Assembly (NCBI GenBank): GCA_964344235.1 | Contig: CAYFMJ010000015.1 | Span: forward strand, 1 to 19,710 | Source of the DNA: an uncultured Methanosarcinales archaeon | Lineage (GTDB): Archaea > Nanobdellota > Nanobdellia > Woesearchaeales > GW2011-AR9 | Length of the DNA: 19,710 nt | Direction: 5' to 3' | Shown: in pieces, positions 212-9,127 of the stretch | Position numbering within the stretch: position 1 is the stretch's first letter | Layout: each line of letters begins with the position of its first letter | Notes under the pieces: model-generated | The model's database searches: none | Seen by the model: the letters and a program-made list of their open reading frames with translations, nothing else | What the model was told of the DNA's origin: nothing | Translations under genes and position numbers: made by a program

Positions 212-1063
212 ATGGATGTGATGTTTCTCGTTGAAAAGTATGGAAAAATTCGTAACCTTAGTCCGAGAACGATAGACACCTATAAAGTAACATTATCAAA
301 GTTCTTTCGTAGACATTGGCGAAAAGATCCACGGGAGATAACAAAGCAGGATGTGGAGAACTACCTGTATGAATTGGTGCAACGTAATAAGTCTCCAAAG
401 ACGATCAATGTCTATTTGAGTGCTCTTAAGTTCTTTTTTGATATTGGATTGAAGAAGAAACTGCTTGTTAATGTTCCTTCATTAAAAACAGAGAAAGAGT
501 TACCTGTATTCTTAACGAAAGAGGAAGCACAGCGGCTCTTTGATGTGATTATGAATGATAAGCACAAATTGATGATTCTACTACTGTATTCTGCGGGTTT
601 GCGGGTGAGTGAGCTTGTTCACCTGAGAGTTCGTGATTTAGAGTTTGCGCAACAATATGGTTGGGTGAGGCAAGGTAAAGGAAGAAGGGATAGATTATTT
701 ATCGTTGCCGAGAAGATAAATAAAGAGTTACAGGAATGGGTTAAAACACAAAGATTACAGAGCGACGACTGGTTATTTCCTTCCTCTCGAGGTGGTCACT
801 TAACTGTTAGGACAGTACAATCCCTCCTTAGAACGGCAACAAAGAAAGCCAAGATTAACAAGAAAGTGACACCACACACATTACGCCATACGTTTGCAAC
901 TCATCTAATCGAGAATGGGTACGCTGTAACGGATGTGCAGCCATTATTAGGACATAATCGCTTGGATACAACCATGACGTATGTTCACATGGCGACTAAT
1001 AGAATGATTCGGGTAAAAAGTCCATTAGATGAGTTAGATAAAAATGCCGTCAAAAGATCATAA
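212..1063 (+). CDS. XerA/XerC/D-like tyrosine recombinase with N-terminal SAM-like domain
   Basis: Complete catalytic set: GLRVSE (R), GKG (K), HTLRH (HxxR), LGH, TMTY (Y). Lacks the integron-integrase-specific insertion between GKG and HxxR. TATA-like CTTATAAA at 181-188, 23 nt upstream of the ATG. Confidence 0.93.
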   Translation: MDVMFLVEKYGKIRNLSPRTIDTYKVTLSKFFRRHWRKDPREITKQDVENYLYELVQRNKSPKTINVYLSALKFFFDIGLKKKLLVNVPSLKTEKELPVFLTKEEAQRLFDVIMNDKHKLMILLLYSAGLRVSELVHLRVRDLEFAQQYGWVRQGKGRRDRLFIVAEKINKELQEWVKTQRLQSDDWLFPSSRGGHLTVRTVQSLLRTATKKAKINKKVTPHTLRHTFATHLIENGYAVTDVQPLLGHNRLDTTMTYVHMATNRMIRVKSPLDELDKNAVKRS

Positions 1064-1355: not shown

Positions 1356-2378
1356 CTACGCATCTACAAAATACCGAATCATATATTCTTTCTTAACATG
1401 TACAATGTCTACATCTTGCACGATGCCACTAAACCTTCTATACAACTCTTCTTCAATTGCATGAATTCTACTTTCTGCATCAACATATAACTCAACTTTG
1501 TAATCGTAAAAACCAACACTTTTCTTCTTGATGTAAAATATTTCGGGAAGGTTAACCAAGAACTCTTCTAGTTCGTCATTTGGAAGCGAAGCGTGGATAA
1601 AGAGGATGTAAAAATAATATCCTGCTCTGCCAGGATGCAACAGGGTGGTATATCGTTTGATTAATCCTCTTTTCTCCAACGATTTTATGCGCATTCTAAC
1701 GGTCTTTTCTGTGATCCCCACTCGCTTTGCAATCACTCTTTTTGGCGTCCTGCAATTTTCTGTCAAGATTTCCAGTAACTTCGTATCAACTGGATCTAAT
1801 GAAATTGGTGTAGTATAATGTTTTGATGTTTTCAATGAGAATTTATCAAAGTCCTTGAAGAACGGATAGGAGAATTGTTTTGATTCAACTGCATGGTTTG
1901 TGTGAATTTTCTTTAAGTACTTCCCAAACATGGAACGAATGTAAAAACAAGCTTCGTAGAGTTGTTCTGGAGTTCTGACAAGAAATGTGCAACATAATGT
2001 AAATGGTCCTGATGTACTTAGCAGCCAACCAGTGTATTTGTATGCTTTAAGTTTCTCTATAGAACTTTGTAATTTCTCTGGTGGTATGCCGTGTAACTTG
2101 ATGAACGTTTCATAGAACCGTAAGCCTAAAGCAGAAGAATTAACAATTGCAAAAAACTTCTTCAAAACACCTCTTTTCTGCAGTTGCTCAAAACGATACT
2201 TGACTGTTTCTTTGGGTAAGCCAACCTTTTTAGCGATCTTAACGAGGGGGAGCGTGGCGTCTTGTGAAAGCTCCCACAGAATGGAAATATCTTTTTTATC
2301 TAATCTGTTGCCCAATTTATGCAATAAAAGGTACAATTGTTTAAATATCTTCCCGTTCTTGCCAATATTTGCTGCCAT
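1356..2378 (-). CDS. Tandem (double HTH-RAM) Lrp/AsnC-family transcriptional regulator
   Basis: Two Lrp-type repeats: LDKKDISILWELSQDATLPLVKIAKKVGLPKETVKYRFEQLQKRGV and LDPVDTKLLEILTENCRTPKRVIAKRVGITEKTVRMRIKSLEKRGL, each followed by a RAM-like domain. The true start may be a TTG at 2315 or 2324, because the ORF-track ATG abuts the TATA box of the divergent gene. Confidence 0.9.
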   Translation of the reverse strand: MAANIGKNGKIFKQLYLLLHKLGNRLDKKDISILWELSQDATLPLVKIAKKVGLPKETVKYRFEQLQKRGVLKKFFAIVNSSALGLRFYETFIKLHGIPPEKLQSSIEKLKAYKYTGWLLSTSGPFTLCCTFLVRTPEQLYEACFYIRSMFGKYLKKIHTNHAVESKQFSYPFFKDFDKFSLKTSKHYTTPISLDPVDTKLLEILTENCRTPKRVIAKRVGITEKTVRMRIKSLEKRGLIKRYTTLLHPGRAGYYFYILFIHASLPNDELEEFLVNLPEIFYIKKKSVGFYDYKVELYVDAESRIHAIEEELYRRFSGIVQDVDIVHVKKEYMIRYFVDA

Positions 2379-2411: not shown

Positions 2412-3794
2412 ATGGAAGTAGACGTTATAGACTGGAAACTCATAGGAGCCTGTAACTTACGCTGCGGTCATTGTTACGGACCACCGAAATCAGAACAAGC
2501 ACTTCCATTGGAAGATCTTCTTACTGTCACAGAAAGATTTGAGCAAGTAGGCACGCAATGGGTCGTCGTGACAGGAGGAGAACCACTCCTCGTGCCAGGT
2601 ATAGAACGTGTTCTAGAAAGAATGAGTACGCGAGGAATTAAGGTCGCGCTCTCCACAAACTCCTCCTTTTTTCGAAGATATCAAGATATGATTGAACGAC
2701 ATGTCTCTTCACTGAACATTCCTCTTGATGGATCAACACCAGAGATACACGCACTCTCACGACATGATGAGAGAACATTTCACTCATTTTTCGATGTTCT
2801 TGATCATTACAGAGATCATCCAGAAAAGAAACCACCATTAATTCGAGTTGGAACTGTTTATTCAACAGCAACACAGGATGATCTTCTTGCAATGGCGCAA
2901 CTACTTGAACCATATGCAGATGTTTTTGACATGTGGAAAATATATGAACTGATTGATTACGAATTTCAACCAGAGAGGCGTCAATCCCTTCTTCACCCAA
3001 ATGGAAGATTTTCTGGAGACATGAATAGATTACTTGGAGGTACGCCTATCGCAGATAAGATAATGGTAAGCCCAGCTTATCGCAGGGATAAAGCGTATTT
3101 CATGATAAACCCCCAAGGAGAACTAATTCTCCCAACAGACATAAACGGAGTAACACACGAGATAGTGTTGGGAAACTTTCTCACTGACCCATTGGAGGAA
3201 TTAGTAGAAGAATGGAGACAAAGAGTTGTTCCAACGGATTACTTTGAGAATCATACACACTACAGGAGGCAAGAACCAGAATCAATTGAGAATGAAATTA
3301 AATTACGTATTGAAAACCCAGCACTTGTTCGCAATGCACTAAAACATCTTGGGGCGGATTATTCCACAACAGAAACACAAAGTGATACATACTTTGCTCG
3401 AGAAAATGGTGTTGAAGGAGAGAATATCCGTGTCCGTGCAGTCTCAAGTTCTGAAGGCGAACATTATGGTTATCTTACATATAAATCGCCACTCGACACA
3501 GAAGCTAAATTTCTTAAACGTGATGAACACCAAACAAGAGTTGATGATCCAAGTGCAACTTTAACAATCTTAGAGAGTCTTGGTTACAAAGTAGTTGACA
3601 GGATTACAAAAATCAGAGAATTGTATCACTTAGGAAGATTAGAGATCGCTCTTGATTATGTAGAGGGCTTAGGTCATTTCATAGAAGTAGAAGGTGATGA
3701 TACATCTATTATGAGCGTTGTTTCCATTCTTGGTTTGCAAGCGGCAAACCACATTAACAAATCCTATTCAGCATTACGAGATGAAAAACAATGA
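2412..3794 (+). CDS. Radical SAM enzyme (viperin-like motifs) fused to a C-terminal CYTH / class IV adenylate cyclase-like domain
   Basis: CNLRCGHC (CxxxCxxC, aa 14-21), TGGEPL, STN, WKIYE and YFMINPQG. From aa ~292 (nt 3285): ENEIK (ExExK), DTYF, IRVR, LTYK, KIRELY, LDYVEGLGHFIEVE, all typical of CYTH/CyaB. Confidence 0.88.
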   Translation: MEVDVIDWKLIGACNLRCGHCYGPPKSEQALPLEDLLTVTERFEQVGTQWVVVTGGEPLLVPGIERVLERMSTRGIKVALSTNSSFFRRYQDMIERHVSSLNIPLDGSTPEIHALSRHDERTFHSFFDVLDHYRDHPEKKPPLIRVGTVYSTATQDDLLAMAQLLEPYADVFDMWKIYELIDYEFQPERRQSLLHPNGRFSGDMNRLLGGTPIADKIMVSPAYRRDKAYFMINPQGELILPTDINGVTHEIVLGNFLTDPLEELVEEWRQRVVPTDYFENHTHYRRQEPESIENEIKLRIENPALVRNALKHLGADYSTTETQSDTYFARENGVEGENIRVRAVSSSEGEHYGYLTYKSPLDTEAKFLKRDEHQTRVDDPSATLTILESLGYKVVDRITKIRELYHLGRLEIALDYVEGLGHFIEVEGDDTSIMSVVSILGLQAANHINKSYSALRDEKQ

Positions 3795-4327
3795 AACCAA
3801 CAATAGCATTAATCGGTCCACCAGCGGGGGGAAAGAGCACACTCATTAGTCCTTATCAAGCACATGCCGTACAATTAGGTGAGTATACAAAGACGCTCCC
3901 GCAAGATAGTCCTTTACTTGCTCGCTGCCATGAACATTGGAAAGCAGGAACGAAATTTTCAACCGAACTTGTCACGGACTTACTTGCATCCTACCCAATA
4001 CCTTCTGTCGATTGGTTGTTACTTGATGGAACGCCACGCAGTGTTGAGCAAATTCCAATCATTGAAAGAATGTTTGACATGCAAGGCTATGTGCGAATTG
4101 TTATTGACGAGAATATATGGGAAGAACGTGCTTTGCGAGCTGCACGGGAGAGAGGAGATAGATATGATAGTACCATGGATAAGTTAAGGATTCGTAGAGC
4201 AGAGTATGAACGAGACTGGAAAGAGCTAGCGTCAGCAGTTTCATGGTATGAAATTGATAATTCAGGAGATGTTGCTGTTGCTCAGCAACAACTCGATCAA
4301 ATCGTAGAAGATATTTTAAAGAGGTAA
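3791..4327 (+). CDS. Adenylate kinase-family nucleoside monophosphate kinase (short-LID type)
   Basis: P-loop GPPAGGKS, LLDGTPRSVEQ (cf. the DGFPR motif of adenylate kinases) and a short LID RERGDRYD. ATGA overlap with the upstream gene. Confidence 0.85.
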   Translation: MKPTIALIGPPAGGKSTLISPYQAHAVQLGEYTKTLPQDSPLLARCHEHWKAGTKFSTELVTDLLASYPIPSVDWLLLDGTPRSVEQIPIIERMFDMQGYVRIVIDENIWEERALRAARERGDRYDSTMDKLRIRRAEYERDWKELASAVSWYEIDNSGDVAVAQQQLDQIVEDILKR

Positions 4328-4346
4328 AACAAGGAGGTATTAAAAA

Positions 4347-4862
4347 ATGGTTGAAATGATGGATGTTGTCAATGACGACAATGAGGTTTTAGGAAAAGTT
4401 ACACAAGAAGAGATTTACGAGAAGAAACTCGGTCACAGGATAGTTCATGTTTTCGTTGTTCATCCAAAAGAGAATAAGGTTTACTTACAAAAAAGGGCAG
4501 AGACAAAATCGTTTCTCCCAGGTTATTATTGCACCTCGGCAGGAGGTCACGTGCAAGCAGGAGAATCTTACGAAGAAGCTGCACAACGAGAATTGCGAGA
4601 AGAGATTGGTTTACACACACCATTACAAGAGGCAGGTTCAATGCTGTTTGTTTCTGATGATCACAAACGTTTCATTAAATTATTTGTGACGTATGCAGAA
4701 GATGGTTTCAATTTTGCCGATGGTGAGGTGGCGAGTGGAGAGTTTTTAGATTTGAATGCTGCCCATAACTTAATCTTGCGTGACGAAAAAATACATCCAC
4801 AATTATCATTTTGTTATAAGTGGATGTACGAGAATAAACCAAAATTATTTCGAAAGCGATAA
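4347..4862 (+). CDS. Nudix hydrolase (IDI/YfcD-like)
   Basis: Nudix box GGHVQAGESYEEAAQRELREEIG; HRIVHVFV and LQKRAETK elements; SD-like GGAGGT upstream. Confidence 0.92.
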   Translation: MVEMMDVVNDDNEVLGKVTQEEIYEKKLGHRIVHVFVVHPKENKVYLQKRAETKSFLPGYYCTSAGGHVQAGESYEEAAQRELREEIGLHTPLQEAGSMLFVSDDHKRFIKLFVTYAEDGFNFADGEVASGEFLDLNAAHNLILRDEKIHPQLSFCYKWMYENKPKLFRKR

Positions 4863-5092: not shown

Positions 5093-5476
5093 CTATAAGT
5101 TCTCTCTTAAAAACTTCCTAACGTCTTCTAGGTTTCTTGTTTCTTTGTTATAATGAAATGTAGTGATTCCAATGGACCTTGCAGATATAACAGCATTCTC
5201 ATTATGCTCAAAATAGACGACCTTTTCTGGTGATAAAGAAAAATGGTTAAGCATCTTCTTATAGTACTCTGCATCAGTTTTATTAGGGTTATGTGCTAAA
5301 GTAAATAACGGATAAGGGAGATCTTTCATTCCAAATTTTTCCTGTTCTTCCTCATTAGCATTTGTAAGAATGATCTTCTTGTTATCAAACCCATCCAACA
5401 TTAACTTCATCTCTTCAAAAATACCCTCTGCCGTTACGAAGGTATTCCATGCGTCTACGAGAATTATTTTTTCCAT
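5093..5476 (-). CDS. Capless HAD-superfamily hydrolase-like protein
   Basis: Start moved to ATG 5476 (MEKIILVDAWNT), supported by the TATA box TTTTTATA 21 nt upstream. HAD-like motifs: DAWNT, ILTN, PNKT, YFEHNENAV. Confidence 0.75.
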   Translation of the reverse strand: MEKIILVDAWNTFVTAEGIFEEMKLMLDGFDNKKIILTNANEEEQEKFGMKDLPYPLFTLAHNPNKTDAEYYKKMLNHFSLSPEKVVYFEHNENAVISARSIGITTFHYNKETRNLEDVRKFLRENL

Positions 5477-5608
5477 ACTAAGTACTTTTGCTCGAGATAT
5501 AAAAAACTTGTGACAAAACGTGACGTTCTGGGGTGCAAAATGGGGTACAAATTGTACCTCGTTTGGGTGAGAGTTACAAATAAATAACATCTAATCTGTT
5601 AAGATTCT

Positions 5609-7706: not shown

Positions 7707-8048
7707 ATGGAGGGACGGGAGATTTTGGGGTTAGTGGAAGAGATTTCTTTGCTAAACTCAGAAGTAGAAGAACAGGTTACAGCACGTATTGATAGCGGAG
7801 CGATGACATCTTCATTAGATAAAACAATTGTAGAGAAACTAAATTTAGGTCCGATCTTAAGAACGAAAGTTATCAAATCTGCATCGGGAGTTGAGGAACG
7901 ACCAATCATTGCAGCACGTGTAAGGATTAAAGGGAAAATTATGGAAGAAGAGTTTACAGTGGCAGATAGAAACCATATGACGTATCAGGTGTTGATTGGA
8001 CAGAATATTTTGAAAAAAGGAGAATTTTTGATAGACCCATTACGATGA
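7707..8048 (+). CDS. RimK-associated putative protease (retropepsin-like 'ATP-dependent Zn protease' family)
   Basis: ARIDSGAMTSSL, EERPII, FTVADRNHMTYQVLIGQN; overlaps rimK, the usual partner of this family. Confidence 0.85.
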   Translation: MEGREILGLVEEISLLNSEVEEQVTARIDSGAMTSSLDKTIVEKLNLGPILRTKVIKSASGVEERPIIAARVRIKGKIMEEEFTVADRNHMTYQVLIGQNILKKGEFLIDPLR

Positions 8049-9127
8049 AAGCAGCATTGATATCATTAGGAAGTACCAGTTCCATTATGACAGCGGAAGC
8101 GATGAAAAAATATTTCAATGAAGTGGAGATGCTACAGTTAAAAAATATCGAAGTATCATTGGGGAAAGATGGAGGCGTGTATTATGAAGGGAAACCAATT
8201 GACCATTTTGATTGTGTGTATGTGAAAGGATCTTTCCGTTATGCAAATTTGTTACGGTCTGTATCAGCGATGTTAGAAAATAAAGTGCCGTACATGCCAT
8301 TCCCGGCAGCAACGTTCAGTAAGGTGCATAATAAGTTGTTAACACATTTAATTTTACAACAACATGATATTCCGATGCCGAAGACGTTTATTTCTTCAAC
8401 GGTAGAAGCAGCCAAAGATATGTTGAACAAATTGAATTATCCAATTGTGATGAAATTTCCTGAAGGGACTCAGGGTAAAGGAGTGATGTTTGCGGATTCA
8501 CAGAGTTCCGCGGCATCAATGTTAGATGCGTTGGAAGCATTAAACCAACCGTTTATTATTCAAGAATTTATTGATACGGAAGGAACCGATGTACGGGCGT
8601 TAGTGGTAGGAGATAAGGTTGTGGCGTCAATGAAACGGCGAGCGAAAGTTGGGGATTTACGATCAAACACACATAGTGGTGGTTCTGCAGAAGCTGTGCA
8701 GATTGATTGGAAAACACAGGAATTAGCGGTGAAAACGGCGAAAGCGTTACAGGCAGATATTTGTGGAGTGGATTTACTAATTGGGCCGTTAGGTCCGGTT
8801 GTTATTGAAGCAAACATTTCTCCAGGGTTACAGGGCATTAGTTCTGTGTCAACGGTCGATGTAGCTGATGAAATTGCGAAGTTTTTGTATAAGAAAACGG
8901 AAGAAGTTGTGGTGAAGAATAAAAAAGCAGCAGCAGCCGAAGTGATGAAAGATATTGCGTTAGAACAACCACAAGATACGCAAAGTGTGATTACCTCATT
9001 AACTGTCCGCGGACAAAGAATTTTATTACCTGAATTTGTAACAAAGATTTCTGGTTTCTCTGAGAAAGGAGAGTATACCATTAAAGCTGCGAAAGGGAAG
9101 GTTGAGATTGAGAAGTTTGAGATGTGA
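8045..9127 (+). CDS. RimK/LysX-family ATP-grasp alpha-L-glutamate ligase with C-terminal AbrB-like extension
   Basis: NKLLT...IPMPKT, PIVMKFPEGTQGKGV, IIQEFI, DVRALVVG, RSNTHSGG, GVDLL, VIEANISPG. Confidence 0.9.
   Translation: MKAALISLGSTSSIMTAEAMKKYFNEVEMLQLKNIEVSLGKDGGVYYEGKPIDHFDCVYVKGSFRYANLLRSVSAMLENKVPYMPFPAATFSKVHNKLLTHLILQQHDIPMPKTFISSTVEAAKDMLNKLNYPIVMKFPEGTQGKGVMFADSQSSAASMLDALEALNQPFIIQEFIDTEGTDVRALVVGDKVVASMKRRAKVGDLRSNTHSGGSAEAVQIDWKTQELAVKTAKALQADICGVDLLIGPLGPVVIEANISPGLQGISSVSTVDVADEIAKFLYKKTEEVVVKNKKAAAAEVMKDIALEQPQDTQSVITSLTVRGQRILLPEFVTKISGFSEKGEYTIKAAKGKVEIEKFEM

Follow-up and report, generated by a model that had tools for sequence, protein, structure and literature searches.

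What does a viperin-like enzyme do when it is fused to a CYTH domain and encoded together with a nucleotide kinase-like protein, a Nudix hydrolase and a divergent tandem Lrp/AsnC protein? The question is raised by the 19,710-nucleotide stretch of archaeal DNA analysed here (hereafter the window), which is contig C15 of a 1.19-Mb genome that is 96% complete. We found that the radical SAM (S-adenosylmethionine) domain of this enzyme is viperin-like but is not a canonical viperin, that its constant partner is the Nudix hydrolase, and that the cassette in the window is rare and has probably spread by horizontal transfer. That the cassette is an accessory system of the conflict type, making a modified nucleotide, is a reading to which we give an even chance. 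In what follows, C15 stands for the window, C5 for a second contig of the same genome, and labels beginning with L and P for the loci and proteins of relatives. The features of the cassette are the following:

1356-2378, minus strand: tandem Lrp/AsnC protein (Lrp2), two units of winged helix-turn-helix (HTH) plus RAM-type ligand domain; coordinates of the maximal open reading frame (ORF)
2316-2411, no strand assigned: divergent control region, from a four-locus alignment
2412-3281, plus strand: viperin-like radical SAM domain, residues 1-290, from profiles, an AlphaFold2 (AF2) model, trees and motifs
2451-2474, 2571-2588, 2934-2948, 3096-3119 and 3249-3263, plus strand: radical SAM landmarks CxxxCxxC, TGGEPL, WKIYE, YFMINPQG and NHTHY, in that order
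3282-3794, plus strand: CYTH domain (triphosphate tunnel, CyaB-like), an in-frame fusion, from Pfam and TIGR00318
3288-3302 and 3651-3695, plus strand: CYTH landmarks, ExExK in the form ENEIK and the C-terminal motif LDYVEGLGHFIEVE
3791-4327, plus strand: P-loop protein resembling nucleoside monophosphate (NMP) kinases, of the adenylate / UMP-CMP kinase superfamily, short form without LID; P-loop at 3815-3841
4347-4862, plus strand: Nudix hydrolase of the YfcD/DR_0079 type; complete Nudix box at 4542-4613

The three plus-strand ORFs are tightly packed (2412-3794, 460 aa; 3791-4327, 178 aa; 4347-4862, 171 aa). Read directly from the letters, the first two share an ATGA overlap at 3791-3794, and the kinase and Nudix ORFs are separated by a 19-nt spacer (4328-4346) that contains GGAGG. 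An earlier interpretation made from the letters alone (the sequence-only reading) had described three co-directional, tightly linked genes, and its ORF coordinates, the overlap and the gap were all confirmed. In the 460-residue protein, Pfam identifies two domains, Radical_SAM (residues 10-136, 62.5 bits) and CYTH (residues 292-451, 73.5 bits). The catalytic motifs are intact in all four enzymatic domains, including ExExK, the Nudix box and the P-loop.

The evidence for kinship with viperins comes from cysteines, fold, profiles, trees and motifs. The 460-residue protein has three cysteines in total, C14, C18 and C21, which make up the CxxxCxxC triad, and the GGE SAM motif lies at G55-G56-E57. 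Because there are only these three cysteines, the protein has no SPASM, twitch or auxiliary cluster and would bind one cluster only, which bears out the earlier description of a triad without SPASM cysteines. When the AF2 model of the domain (22 homologues in the alignment; predicted local distance difference test score, pLDDT, of 88.8) was searched against the structures of the PDB, the 16 best matches were all viperins. The model aligns over its full length with mouse viperin bound to CTP (6Q2P; template-modelling (TM) score 0.80-0.81, root-mean-square deviation 2.8 Å, about 300 columns), whereas TM scores were lower for other radical SAM enzymes, at 0.69 for SkfB, 0.65 for BlsE and 0.55-0.58 for MoaA. 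Model and motifs together describe a viperin-like partial (beta-alpha)6 barrel closed by a C-terminal extension. The PADLOC profile of prokaryotic viperins (pVips) matched residues 5-244 (66.5 bits), and the NCBIfam viperin model was the sole model to span nearly the entire domain, while those of MoaA, NirJ and others covered the N-terminal core only. In a plain sequence search of the PDB, MoaA, viperins and BlsE tie at about 1e-14. In the tree, viperins and the window family stand together on one side of a branch that separates them from MoaA and the SPASM enzymes (99.7 in the Shimodaira-Hasegawa-like approximate likelihood ratio test, SH-aLRT). The phylogeny that had been proposed as a check, and the structure model, thus both side with viperins and not with MoaA or SPASM-type enzymes. 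WKIYE (175-179) aligns with RWKVLQ of true archaeal viperins, and YFMINPQG (229-236), in the form AYFMxNPxG, with viperin SYFMxxPxG; neither has a counterpart in MoaA. The two elements that had been singled out as viperin-like are thus true homologies. By sequence alignment, K219 of human viperin, a phosphate ligand in the WK motif, is kept as K176.

The domain nevertheless departs from viperins in several ways. The curated model NF038283 (viperin_w_prok) gave 53.5 bits over positions 3-243 of 281, against a cut-off of 180 that the true archaeal pVips pass with 223-266 bits; the latter were present in 22 of the 201 genomes of one methanogen class. In the tree, pVips form a clade of their own (support 100) and the window family is its sister, outside it, in a sample that comprised archaeal viperins of one archaeal class only, MoaA and 12 SPASM-type enzymes. 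Sequence alignment gives no equivalent of R244 (human numbering), the position being hydrophobic and not basic, and shows a conserved NHxxHY in the window family in place of the C-terminal RxxxY clamp of viperins (RGGxY). Ahead of the cysteine triad, the N-W-H of viperins is D-W-K in the window protein. The RxxxY clamp has been described as essential to all synthesis of 3'-deoxy-3',4'-didehydro-nucleoside triphosphates (ddh-NTPs) (preprint bioRxiv 10.64898/2026.09.10.750538). As R244, RxxxY and N-W-H are changed, the substrate or the chemistry may differ from those of viperin; it is probably a nucleotide, and the alignment indicates that the pocket is built differently at its phosphate-binding end. 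The assignment of the enzyme to the viperin family was therefore right as to its nearest relatives, by fold, profile coverage and tree, but went too far in that the domain misses the 180-bit cut-off, lies outside the clade and lacks R244 and RxxxY.

The constant partner of the radical SAM enzyme is the Nudix hydrolase, and the two make up the constant core of the cassette. A Nudix domain is adjacent to or fused with the enzyme in 11 of the 12 close loci, from DPANN archaea and bacteria of the candidate phyla radiation (CPR): it adjoins the enzyme in C15, C5, L006, L007, L086, L088, L090, L091, L092 and L127, and is missing in L126 only. Orthologues that are 51-76% identical lie beside the radical SAM gene in nine loci, L127 has a more distant tenth some 600 nt upstream of that gene, and in P0015, P0019 and P0020 the Nudix domain is fused to the radical SAM domain. 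The window protein matches Pfam NUDIX (PF00293) with 59.1 bits (cut-off 21.1) and carries the Gx5Ex7REUxEExGU box at residues 66-89. Its matches in the PDB are E. coli YfcD (1.5e-19) and Deinococcus DR0079 (3.1e-11). With 91.2 bits, it stays below the 152 bits of the YfcD equivalog model NF011922, which makes it a member of a YfcD/DR_0079-like subfamily and not an equivalog.

The kinase is a frequent partner whose family varies. A nucleotide kinase adjoins the radical SAM gene in nine loci and comes from four different families: it resembles adenylate kinase (ADK) in C15, C5, L006, L123 and L124, is a guanylate kinase in L088 and L091, resembles thymidylate or deoxynucleoside kinases (TMPK/dNK) in L090, and is a nucleoside diphosphate kinase (NDK) in L127. 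The window kinase has the P-loop GPPAGGKST and matches NF001381 (E 1.1e-9), but its Pfam ADK match (PF00406) is below threshold (22.1 bits against 26.8) and the NCBIfam adenylate kinase models are far under their cut-offs; its nearest PDB chains are mycobacterial adenylate kinases (about 2e-6). Orthologues with 43-57% identity occupy the same position in C5, L006, L123 and L124. This arrangement parallels, as had been claimed, the known genetic linkage between viperins and kinases, in which CMPK2 supplies the NTP pool for viperin (Shomar et al., bioRxiv 10.1101/2023.09.13.557418).

The proposed unit of three genes was incomplete, because the divergent tandem-Lrp gene, which had been missed, is integral to it. 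In the Lrp2 ORF, Pfam finds an HTH_AsnC-type domain twice (80.9 bits, cut-off 27), residues 188-314 align to whole archaeal Lrp chains (positions 2-130), and the tandem NirD-like protein 4ch7 is matched weakly (1.2e-4). A tandem-Lrp gene is divergent in the archaeal loci C15, C5, L086 and L006, and the window gene is 51-87% identical to those in the same divergent position in the other three. At least 11 of 36 long family members have a complete tandem-Lrp module C-terminal to their radical SAM domain, and six more have part of one. Since the module is fused to the enzyme in relatives, it is a partner of the enzyme and not a chance neighbour. A complex prediction for the radical SAM domain and the tandem-Lrp protein gave a score of 0.00, which is no answer, neither for nor against binding. 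There is also a third tandem-Lrp paralogue (C1:406843-407865; L125:844-1866) that is 87% identical to that of the window and has no adjacent radical SAM operon; its region includes integrase fragments and small mobile-element-like ORFs (C1:402323-404605).

Because the four archaeal control regions (window, C5, L086 and L006) align with the same 96-nt divergent spacer, the true start of Lrp2 is probably the TTG at 2315, and the first 21 codons of the maximal ORF (2315-2378) are probably untranslated. A conserved TATA-like box, CTTTTATAAT, lies at about 2381-2390, which is roughly 22-31 nt upstream of the radical SAM ATG, and falls inside the putative Lrp2 extension. The alignment contains a conserved TTTTATA block and a block resembling TTTAGCCAAT, which may serve as promoter or operator.

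The CYTH domain is clearly identified by PF01928 (73.5 bits, cut-off 23.2), TIGR00318 cyaB (75.6 bits, cut-off 57.95) and the motif ENEIK at residues 293-297. Its nearest solved chains include uncharacterised archaeal CYTH proteins and the triphosphatase Saci_0718, class IV cyclases being farther. Among the close loci, the domain occurs in four only (C15, C5, L123 and L124), fused in C15 and split in the other three, and the gene order radical SAM-CYTH-kinase is also that of L123 and L124. Compared with the window fusion, the split paralogue in C5 has an 8-nt indel at the junction, where the window, as assembled, has a continuous frame, and its CYTH gene overlaps the 3' end of the radical SAM gene by 77 nt. 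In separate lineages, fusion of Nudix or of CYTH has taken place at one and the same end of the radical SAM enzyme, its C-terminus. We considered the radical SAM-CYTH fusion as the defining feature of the system and rejected it, as three of the four CYTH-bearing loci are split; the fusion is a local event in a small subclade and not the core of the system.

The sequence-only reading had not recognised the fusion from described systems. This needs amending, since fusion to a 'triphosphatase or cyclase' domain is on record for four eukaryotic viperins, where it was listed and not studied, and the idea is thus not wholly new. As for the role of the domain, it had been proposed to cyclise or dephosphorylate the product. 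A ddh-NTP carries no 3'-OH, so that cyclising a viperin-type product is chemically unlikely and the domain would more likely act on it as a triphosphatase, in line with its kinship to Saci_0718.

The case for a functional unit had been made to depend on co-conservation of the genes elsewhere, and they are co-conserved. The same genome holds a second complete cassette in the same order (C5:21968-25450; L005:6960-10454), beside the gene of ribosomal protein L10e, with identities to the window of 62% for the tandem-Lrp protein, 62% for the radical SAM, 52% for CYTH, 57% for the kinase and 76% for Nudix; to this copy are added L123 and L124 and the Nudix of 11 of the 12 close loci. Close homologues (45-62% identity) form about 60 clusters among 5.8 billion proteins and lie on archaeal and bacterial contigs. 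The bacterial carriers comprise one Buchananbacteria (CPR) record, the others being judged CPR-like by their neighbouring genes. A scan of genome contigs found two close loci only, and a scan of metagenomes found two further ones. A search of 400 further high-quality genomes from this phylum, 41 of them in the same family, found no close homologue (E <= 1e-30). The viral contigs of IMG/VR gave only generic N-terminal radical SAM matches and no close homologue, and thus no sign that viruses carry the family. A look-up in the ESM Atlas returned unnamed 'radical SAM' clusters only. This distribution, of a rare accessory trait across domains, is evidence against a housekeeping role.

The wider family extends well beyond the close homologues. 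When 1.84 billion representative proteins were searched with a profile, 420 clusters gave full-length matches at E <= 1e-30. All 101 short members match the viperin model, which is the sole model common to all 101, and all stay under its cut-off. Longer architectures include TIR-rSAM-Lrp2 (rSAM denoting the radical SAM domain), caspase-rSAM, HEAT and TIR-like domains with rSAM-Lrp2, rSAM-HD, and rSAM-receiver-PRTase-CE, where PRTase stands for phosphoribosyltransferase. Fusions to TIR, caspase, HD and PRTase domains are typical of proteins involved in immunity or biological conflict. In Rhizobiaceae and actinobacteria, wider-family loci encode a protein resembling ribonucleotide reductase (RNR), Nudix, methyltransferase or PfkB kinases.

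Three of the wider-family loci deserve mention in their own right. In a Rhizobiaceae metagenome-assembled genome (MAG; L008:3815-7555, JBDWCD010000012.1), genes for an RNR-like barrel protein, a Nudix, a viperin-like radical SAM enzyme and a SAM methyltransferase point in the same direction, and the methyltransferase is followed by a 1080-aa protein without Pfam match. A Streptosporangiaceae MAG (L012:5986-7779) has two wider-family viperin-like radical SAM genes in tandem. In L093:3514-8234 (JGI 3300048647), a 621-aa fusion of radical SAM and tandem Lrp (P0064) lies beside SLATT-domain and DUF4062 proteins, a defence-like setting.

How might these parts work together? The kinase, with the cellular NDK, would raise the pool of one NTP. 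The radical SAM enzyme, with a single [4Fe-4S] cluster on C14/C18/C21, would then use the 5'-deoxyadenosyl radical derived from SAM to attack the ribose of the nucleotide, and the product may be a compound of the viperin type (3'-deoxy-3',4'-didehydro) or a related one. Phosphoanhydride bonds may then be cleaved by Nudix, joined in this subclade by the CYTH tunnel enzyme. If the bonds are those of the product, this would amount to maturation to a mono- or diphosphate or to the nucleoside; if they are those of surplus nucleotide, it would amount to self-protection. The tandem-Lrp protein would control the operon from the shared 96-nt region and may also be the ligand-sensing partner of the enzyme. 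The biological role of such an accessory system is most likely conflict or antiviral defence. A more specific version can only be put forward tentatively. According to it, the enzymes form a sister family of viperins that has so far gone undescribed and numbers 420 clusters or more; they are wired to Lrp2 and often to TIR, caspase, HD or PRTase domains, and make a radical-derived nucleotide other than a plain ddh-NTP, for example a dephosphorylated ddh-nucleotide or some other species modified in the ribose. Its DPANN/CPR branch, just as tentatively, would have Nudix as an obligate partner, joined by CYTH in the window.

The departures from viperins described above (the missed cut-off, the place outside the pVip clade in a narrow tree sample, the loss of R244, RxxxY and N-W-H) weigh against reading the cassette as a conflict system built on viperin-like chemistry, and so do several features of its function and setting. 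If the Nudix broke down a chain-terminating NTP, it would apparently cancel a defence of the viperin type. Profiles of defence models matched only pVip, besides a weak match of the Nudix to PDC-S07. Several copies lie beside housekeeping genes (L10e, rpoB, L7Ae). Flanking direct or inverted repeats and a tRNA-derived att site were not found beyond chance around the region, and ARAGORN found no tRNA in the window. The position of the cassette had been said to fit the cargo of a defence island between two recombinases, which are:

212-1063, plus strand: tyrosine recombinase of the XerC/D (XerA) type; Phage_integrase 146.7 bits
6114-7358, minus strand: integrase-like ORF; Phage_integrase 25.3 bits, cut-off 27.1

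Both are taken here as context of the cassette. The first is a clear integrase, with a 52% identical paralogue on contig C3. The second is sub-threshold, repeats are lacking and other copies lie beside core genes, so that the argument from an island between recombinases is weak. In the same surroundings, a 102-aa ORF (1044-1352) overlaps the end of the integrase gene and has copies with 62-66% identity on C28, C19 and C5. Convergent with the operon, a HAD-like hydrolase gene (5093-5590, minus strand) might encode a nucleotidase; neither the rest of the genome nor the related loci contain a homologue of it.

Other explanations can be built from the same parts. The cassette could serve housekeeping or salvage in ultra-small symbionts, by repairing, recycling or building a nucleotide-derived cofactor or the precursor of a modified base, with Lrp2 as an ordinary metabolic regulator or as a catalytic Lrp protein of the NirDL/AhbAB kind. 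Every part has an ordinary fold of nucleotide metabolism, the DPANN/CPR carriers depend on salvage, copies adjoin genes for ribosomal protein, NDK and rpoB, and in the synthesis of haem d1 and in the alternative haem pathway tandem Lrp-like enzymes work alongside radical SAM enzymes, which the match of Lrp2 to 4ch7 recalls. Yet a housekeeping function fits poorly with the lack of close homologues in the 400 further genomes searched, 41 of which belong to the same family, with two diverged copies within one 1.19-Mb genome, with a kinase family swapped from locus to locus, and with TIR, caspase and PRTase fusions in the wider family, and we hold it to be unlikely. Slightly less likely still is a fully canonical pVip, producing ddhCTP, ddhUTP or ddhGTP as chain terminators, with the kinase as supplier and Nudix for self-protection only. 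It would account for the viperin fold, the pVip profile matches, the kinase linkage and the WK and YFM motifs, but not for the widely missed curated cut-off, the separate clade or the loss of the essential RxxxY clamp and of R244; moreover, pVips need no Nudix, which is here near-obligate and sometimes fused.

The remaining explanations give the phosphate-acting enzymes a larger part. In a second-messenger module, the radical SAM enzyme and a CYTH of the class IV cyclase type would make a signal, a modified or cyclic nucleotide, that the RAM domains of Lrp2 sense so as to alter transcription and that Nudix switches off. RAM domains of Lrp proteins are indeed small-ligand sensors, Lrp2 is closely tied to the enzyme (as divergent neighbour and by fusion in at least 11 relatives), and CYTH passes the cut-off of the NCBIfam 'class IV adenylate cyclase' model (75.6 against 57.95 bits). 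Nudix enzymes serve to degrade the signal in other nucleotide-based conflict systems (PMC7159879). Such a module lacks an effector gene in the cassette; its supposed cyclase is present in only 4 close loci, outside the constant core of radical SAM and Nudix, and counts the proven triphosphatase Saci_0718 among its nearest solved kin, and a ddh-type product would lack the 3'-OH required for 3',5'-cyclisation. We rank it just behind the canonical pVip in probability. The least probable of the four is an exported, antibiotic-like nucleoside analogue, trimmed to a nucleoside or monophosphate by CYTH, Nudix and perhaps the HAD-like enzyme, that would hit host cells or competitors and not viruses within the producing cell. 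Two phosphate-cleaving enzymes directly follow the radical SAM domain or are fused to it, related enzymes such as BlsE serve nucleoside-antibiotic pathways, the Rhizobiaceae and actinobacterial loci combine RNR-like protein, Nudix, methyltransferase or PfkB kinases, and the carriers are episymbionts. Against this, the close loci share no conserved transporter or tailoring genes, the HAD-like gene is unique to the window, and the immune-type fusions indicate cell-intrinsic conflict.

A conflict-type system making a modified nucleotide, the reading that we prefer, would have partial counterparts among known systems. With pVips (NF038283, PADLOC PDLC02903/02904) the window enzyme shares a single-cluster radical SAM domain of about 290 aa, the partial barrel with C-terminal extension (TM 0.80), the WK and YFMxxPxG motifs, a frequent adjacent nucleotide kinase and a sporadic distribution. 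It differs by its sister clade and its score (53.5 against 180 bits), by D-W-K for N-W-H, the missing R244 and NHxxHY for RGGxY, and by a near-obligate Nudix, a tandem-Lrp partner that is fused in relatives, and DPANN/CPR carriers. Systems of viperin with kinase resemble it in the link between an NMP kinase and a viperin-type enzyme and in rare fusion to a domain of the CYTH/cyclase type. Unlike the window cassette, they have canonical viperins and mostly a kinase of the CMPK2 type (ADK-like in the window; guanylate kinase, TMPK-like or NDK in relatives), and no Nudix or Lrp partner has been reported for them. MoaA (GTP 3',8-cyclase) and BlsE share the N-terminal radical SAM core (E about 1e-14) and act on nucleotides, but the window protein lacks a second [4Fe-4S] cluster, reaches TM scores of 0.55-0.65 with them and lies on the other side of the 99.7 branch.

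The other partners have relatives of their own. We know of no Nudix enzyme of the YfcD/DR_0079 kind that pairs with a radical SAM enzyme. These enzymes are the best sequence matches of the window Nudix, which has a complete box and falls under the equivalog cut-off. DR_0079 hydrolyses cytosine (deoxy)nucleoside di- and triphosphates, which are its preferred substrates according to Buchko et al. 2008 as cited in PMC5389931. NirDL and AhbAB, which stand beside NirJ, AhbC and AhbD, likewise consist of tandem HTH and RAM units tied genetically to a radical SAM enzyme; in the window, by contrast, no tetrapyrrole genes surround the cassette, the radical SAM enzyme is viperin-like and not of the SPASM type, and Lrp2 likely serves regulation or sensing.

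Our search of the literature found no description of the sister family, of its near-obligate Nudix, of the tandem-Lrp fusion or of its presence in DPANN and CPR. These four elements appear to be new, whereas the linkage of viperin with kinases and its fusion to a CYTH-type domain were known. Few immune enzymes are common to all domains of life as viperins are, and the nucleotide analogues that viperins make are natural antivirals. A sister family could thus yield new nucleotide chemistry and new ways of regulating viperin-like enzymes, and would open a rare view of how DPANN archaea and CPR bacteria, both hard to culture, practise defence or interference. If the more specific version, tentative as it is, proves true, immune systems based on nucleotide analogues would gain a new class, one that ultra-small archaea and bacteria exchange with each other. 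Because the cassette measures about 3.5 kb with its regulator and exists in natural split and fused versions in one genome, it lends itself to direct testing by heterologous expression.

Farther along the window, at 7707-9127, a gene of the retropepsin-like / 'Zn_protease' family overlaps with the start of the gene for an ATP-grasp ligase of the RimK type, and the two form an ordinary RimK pair.

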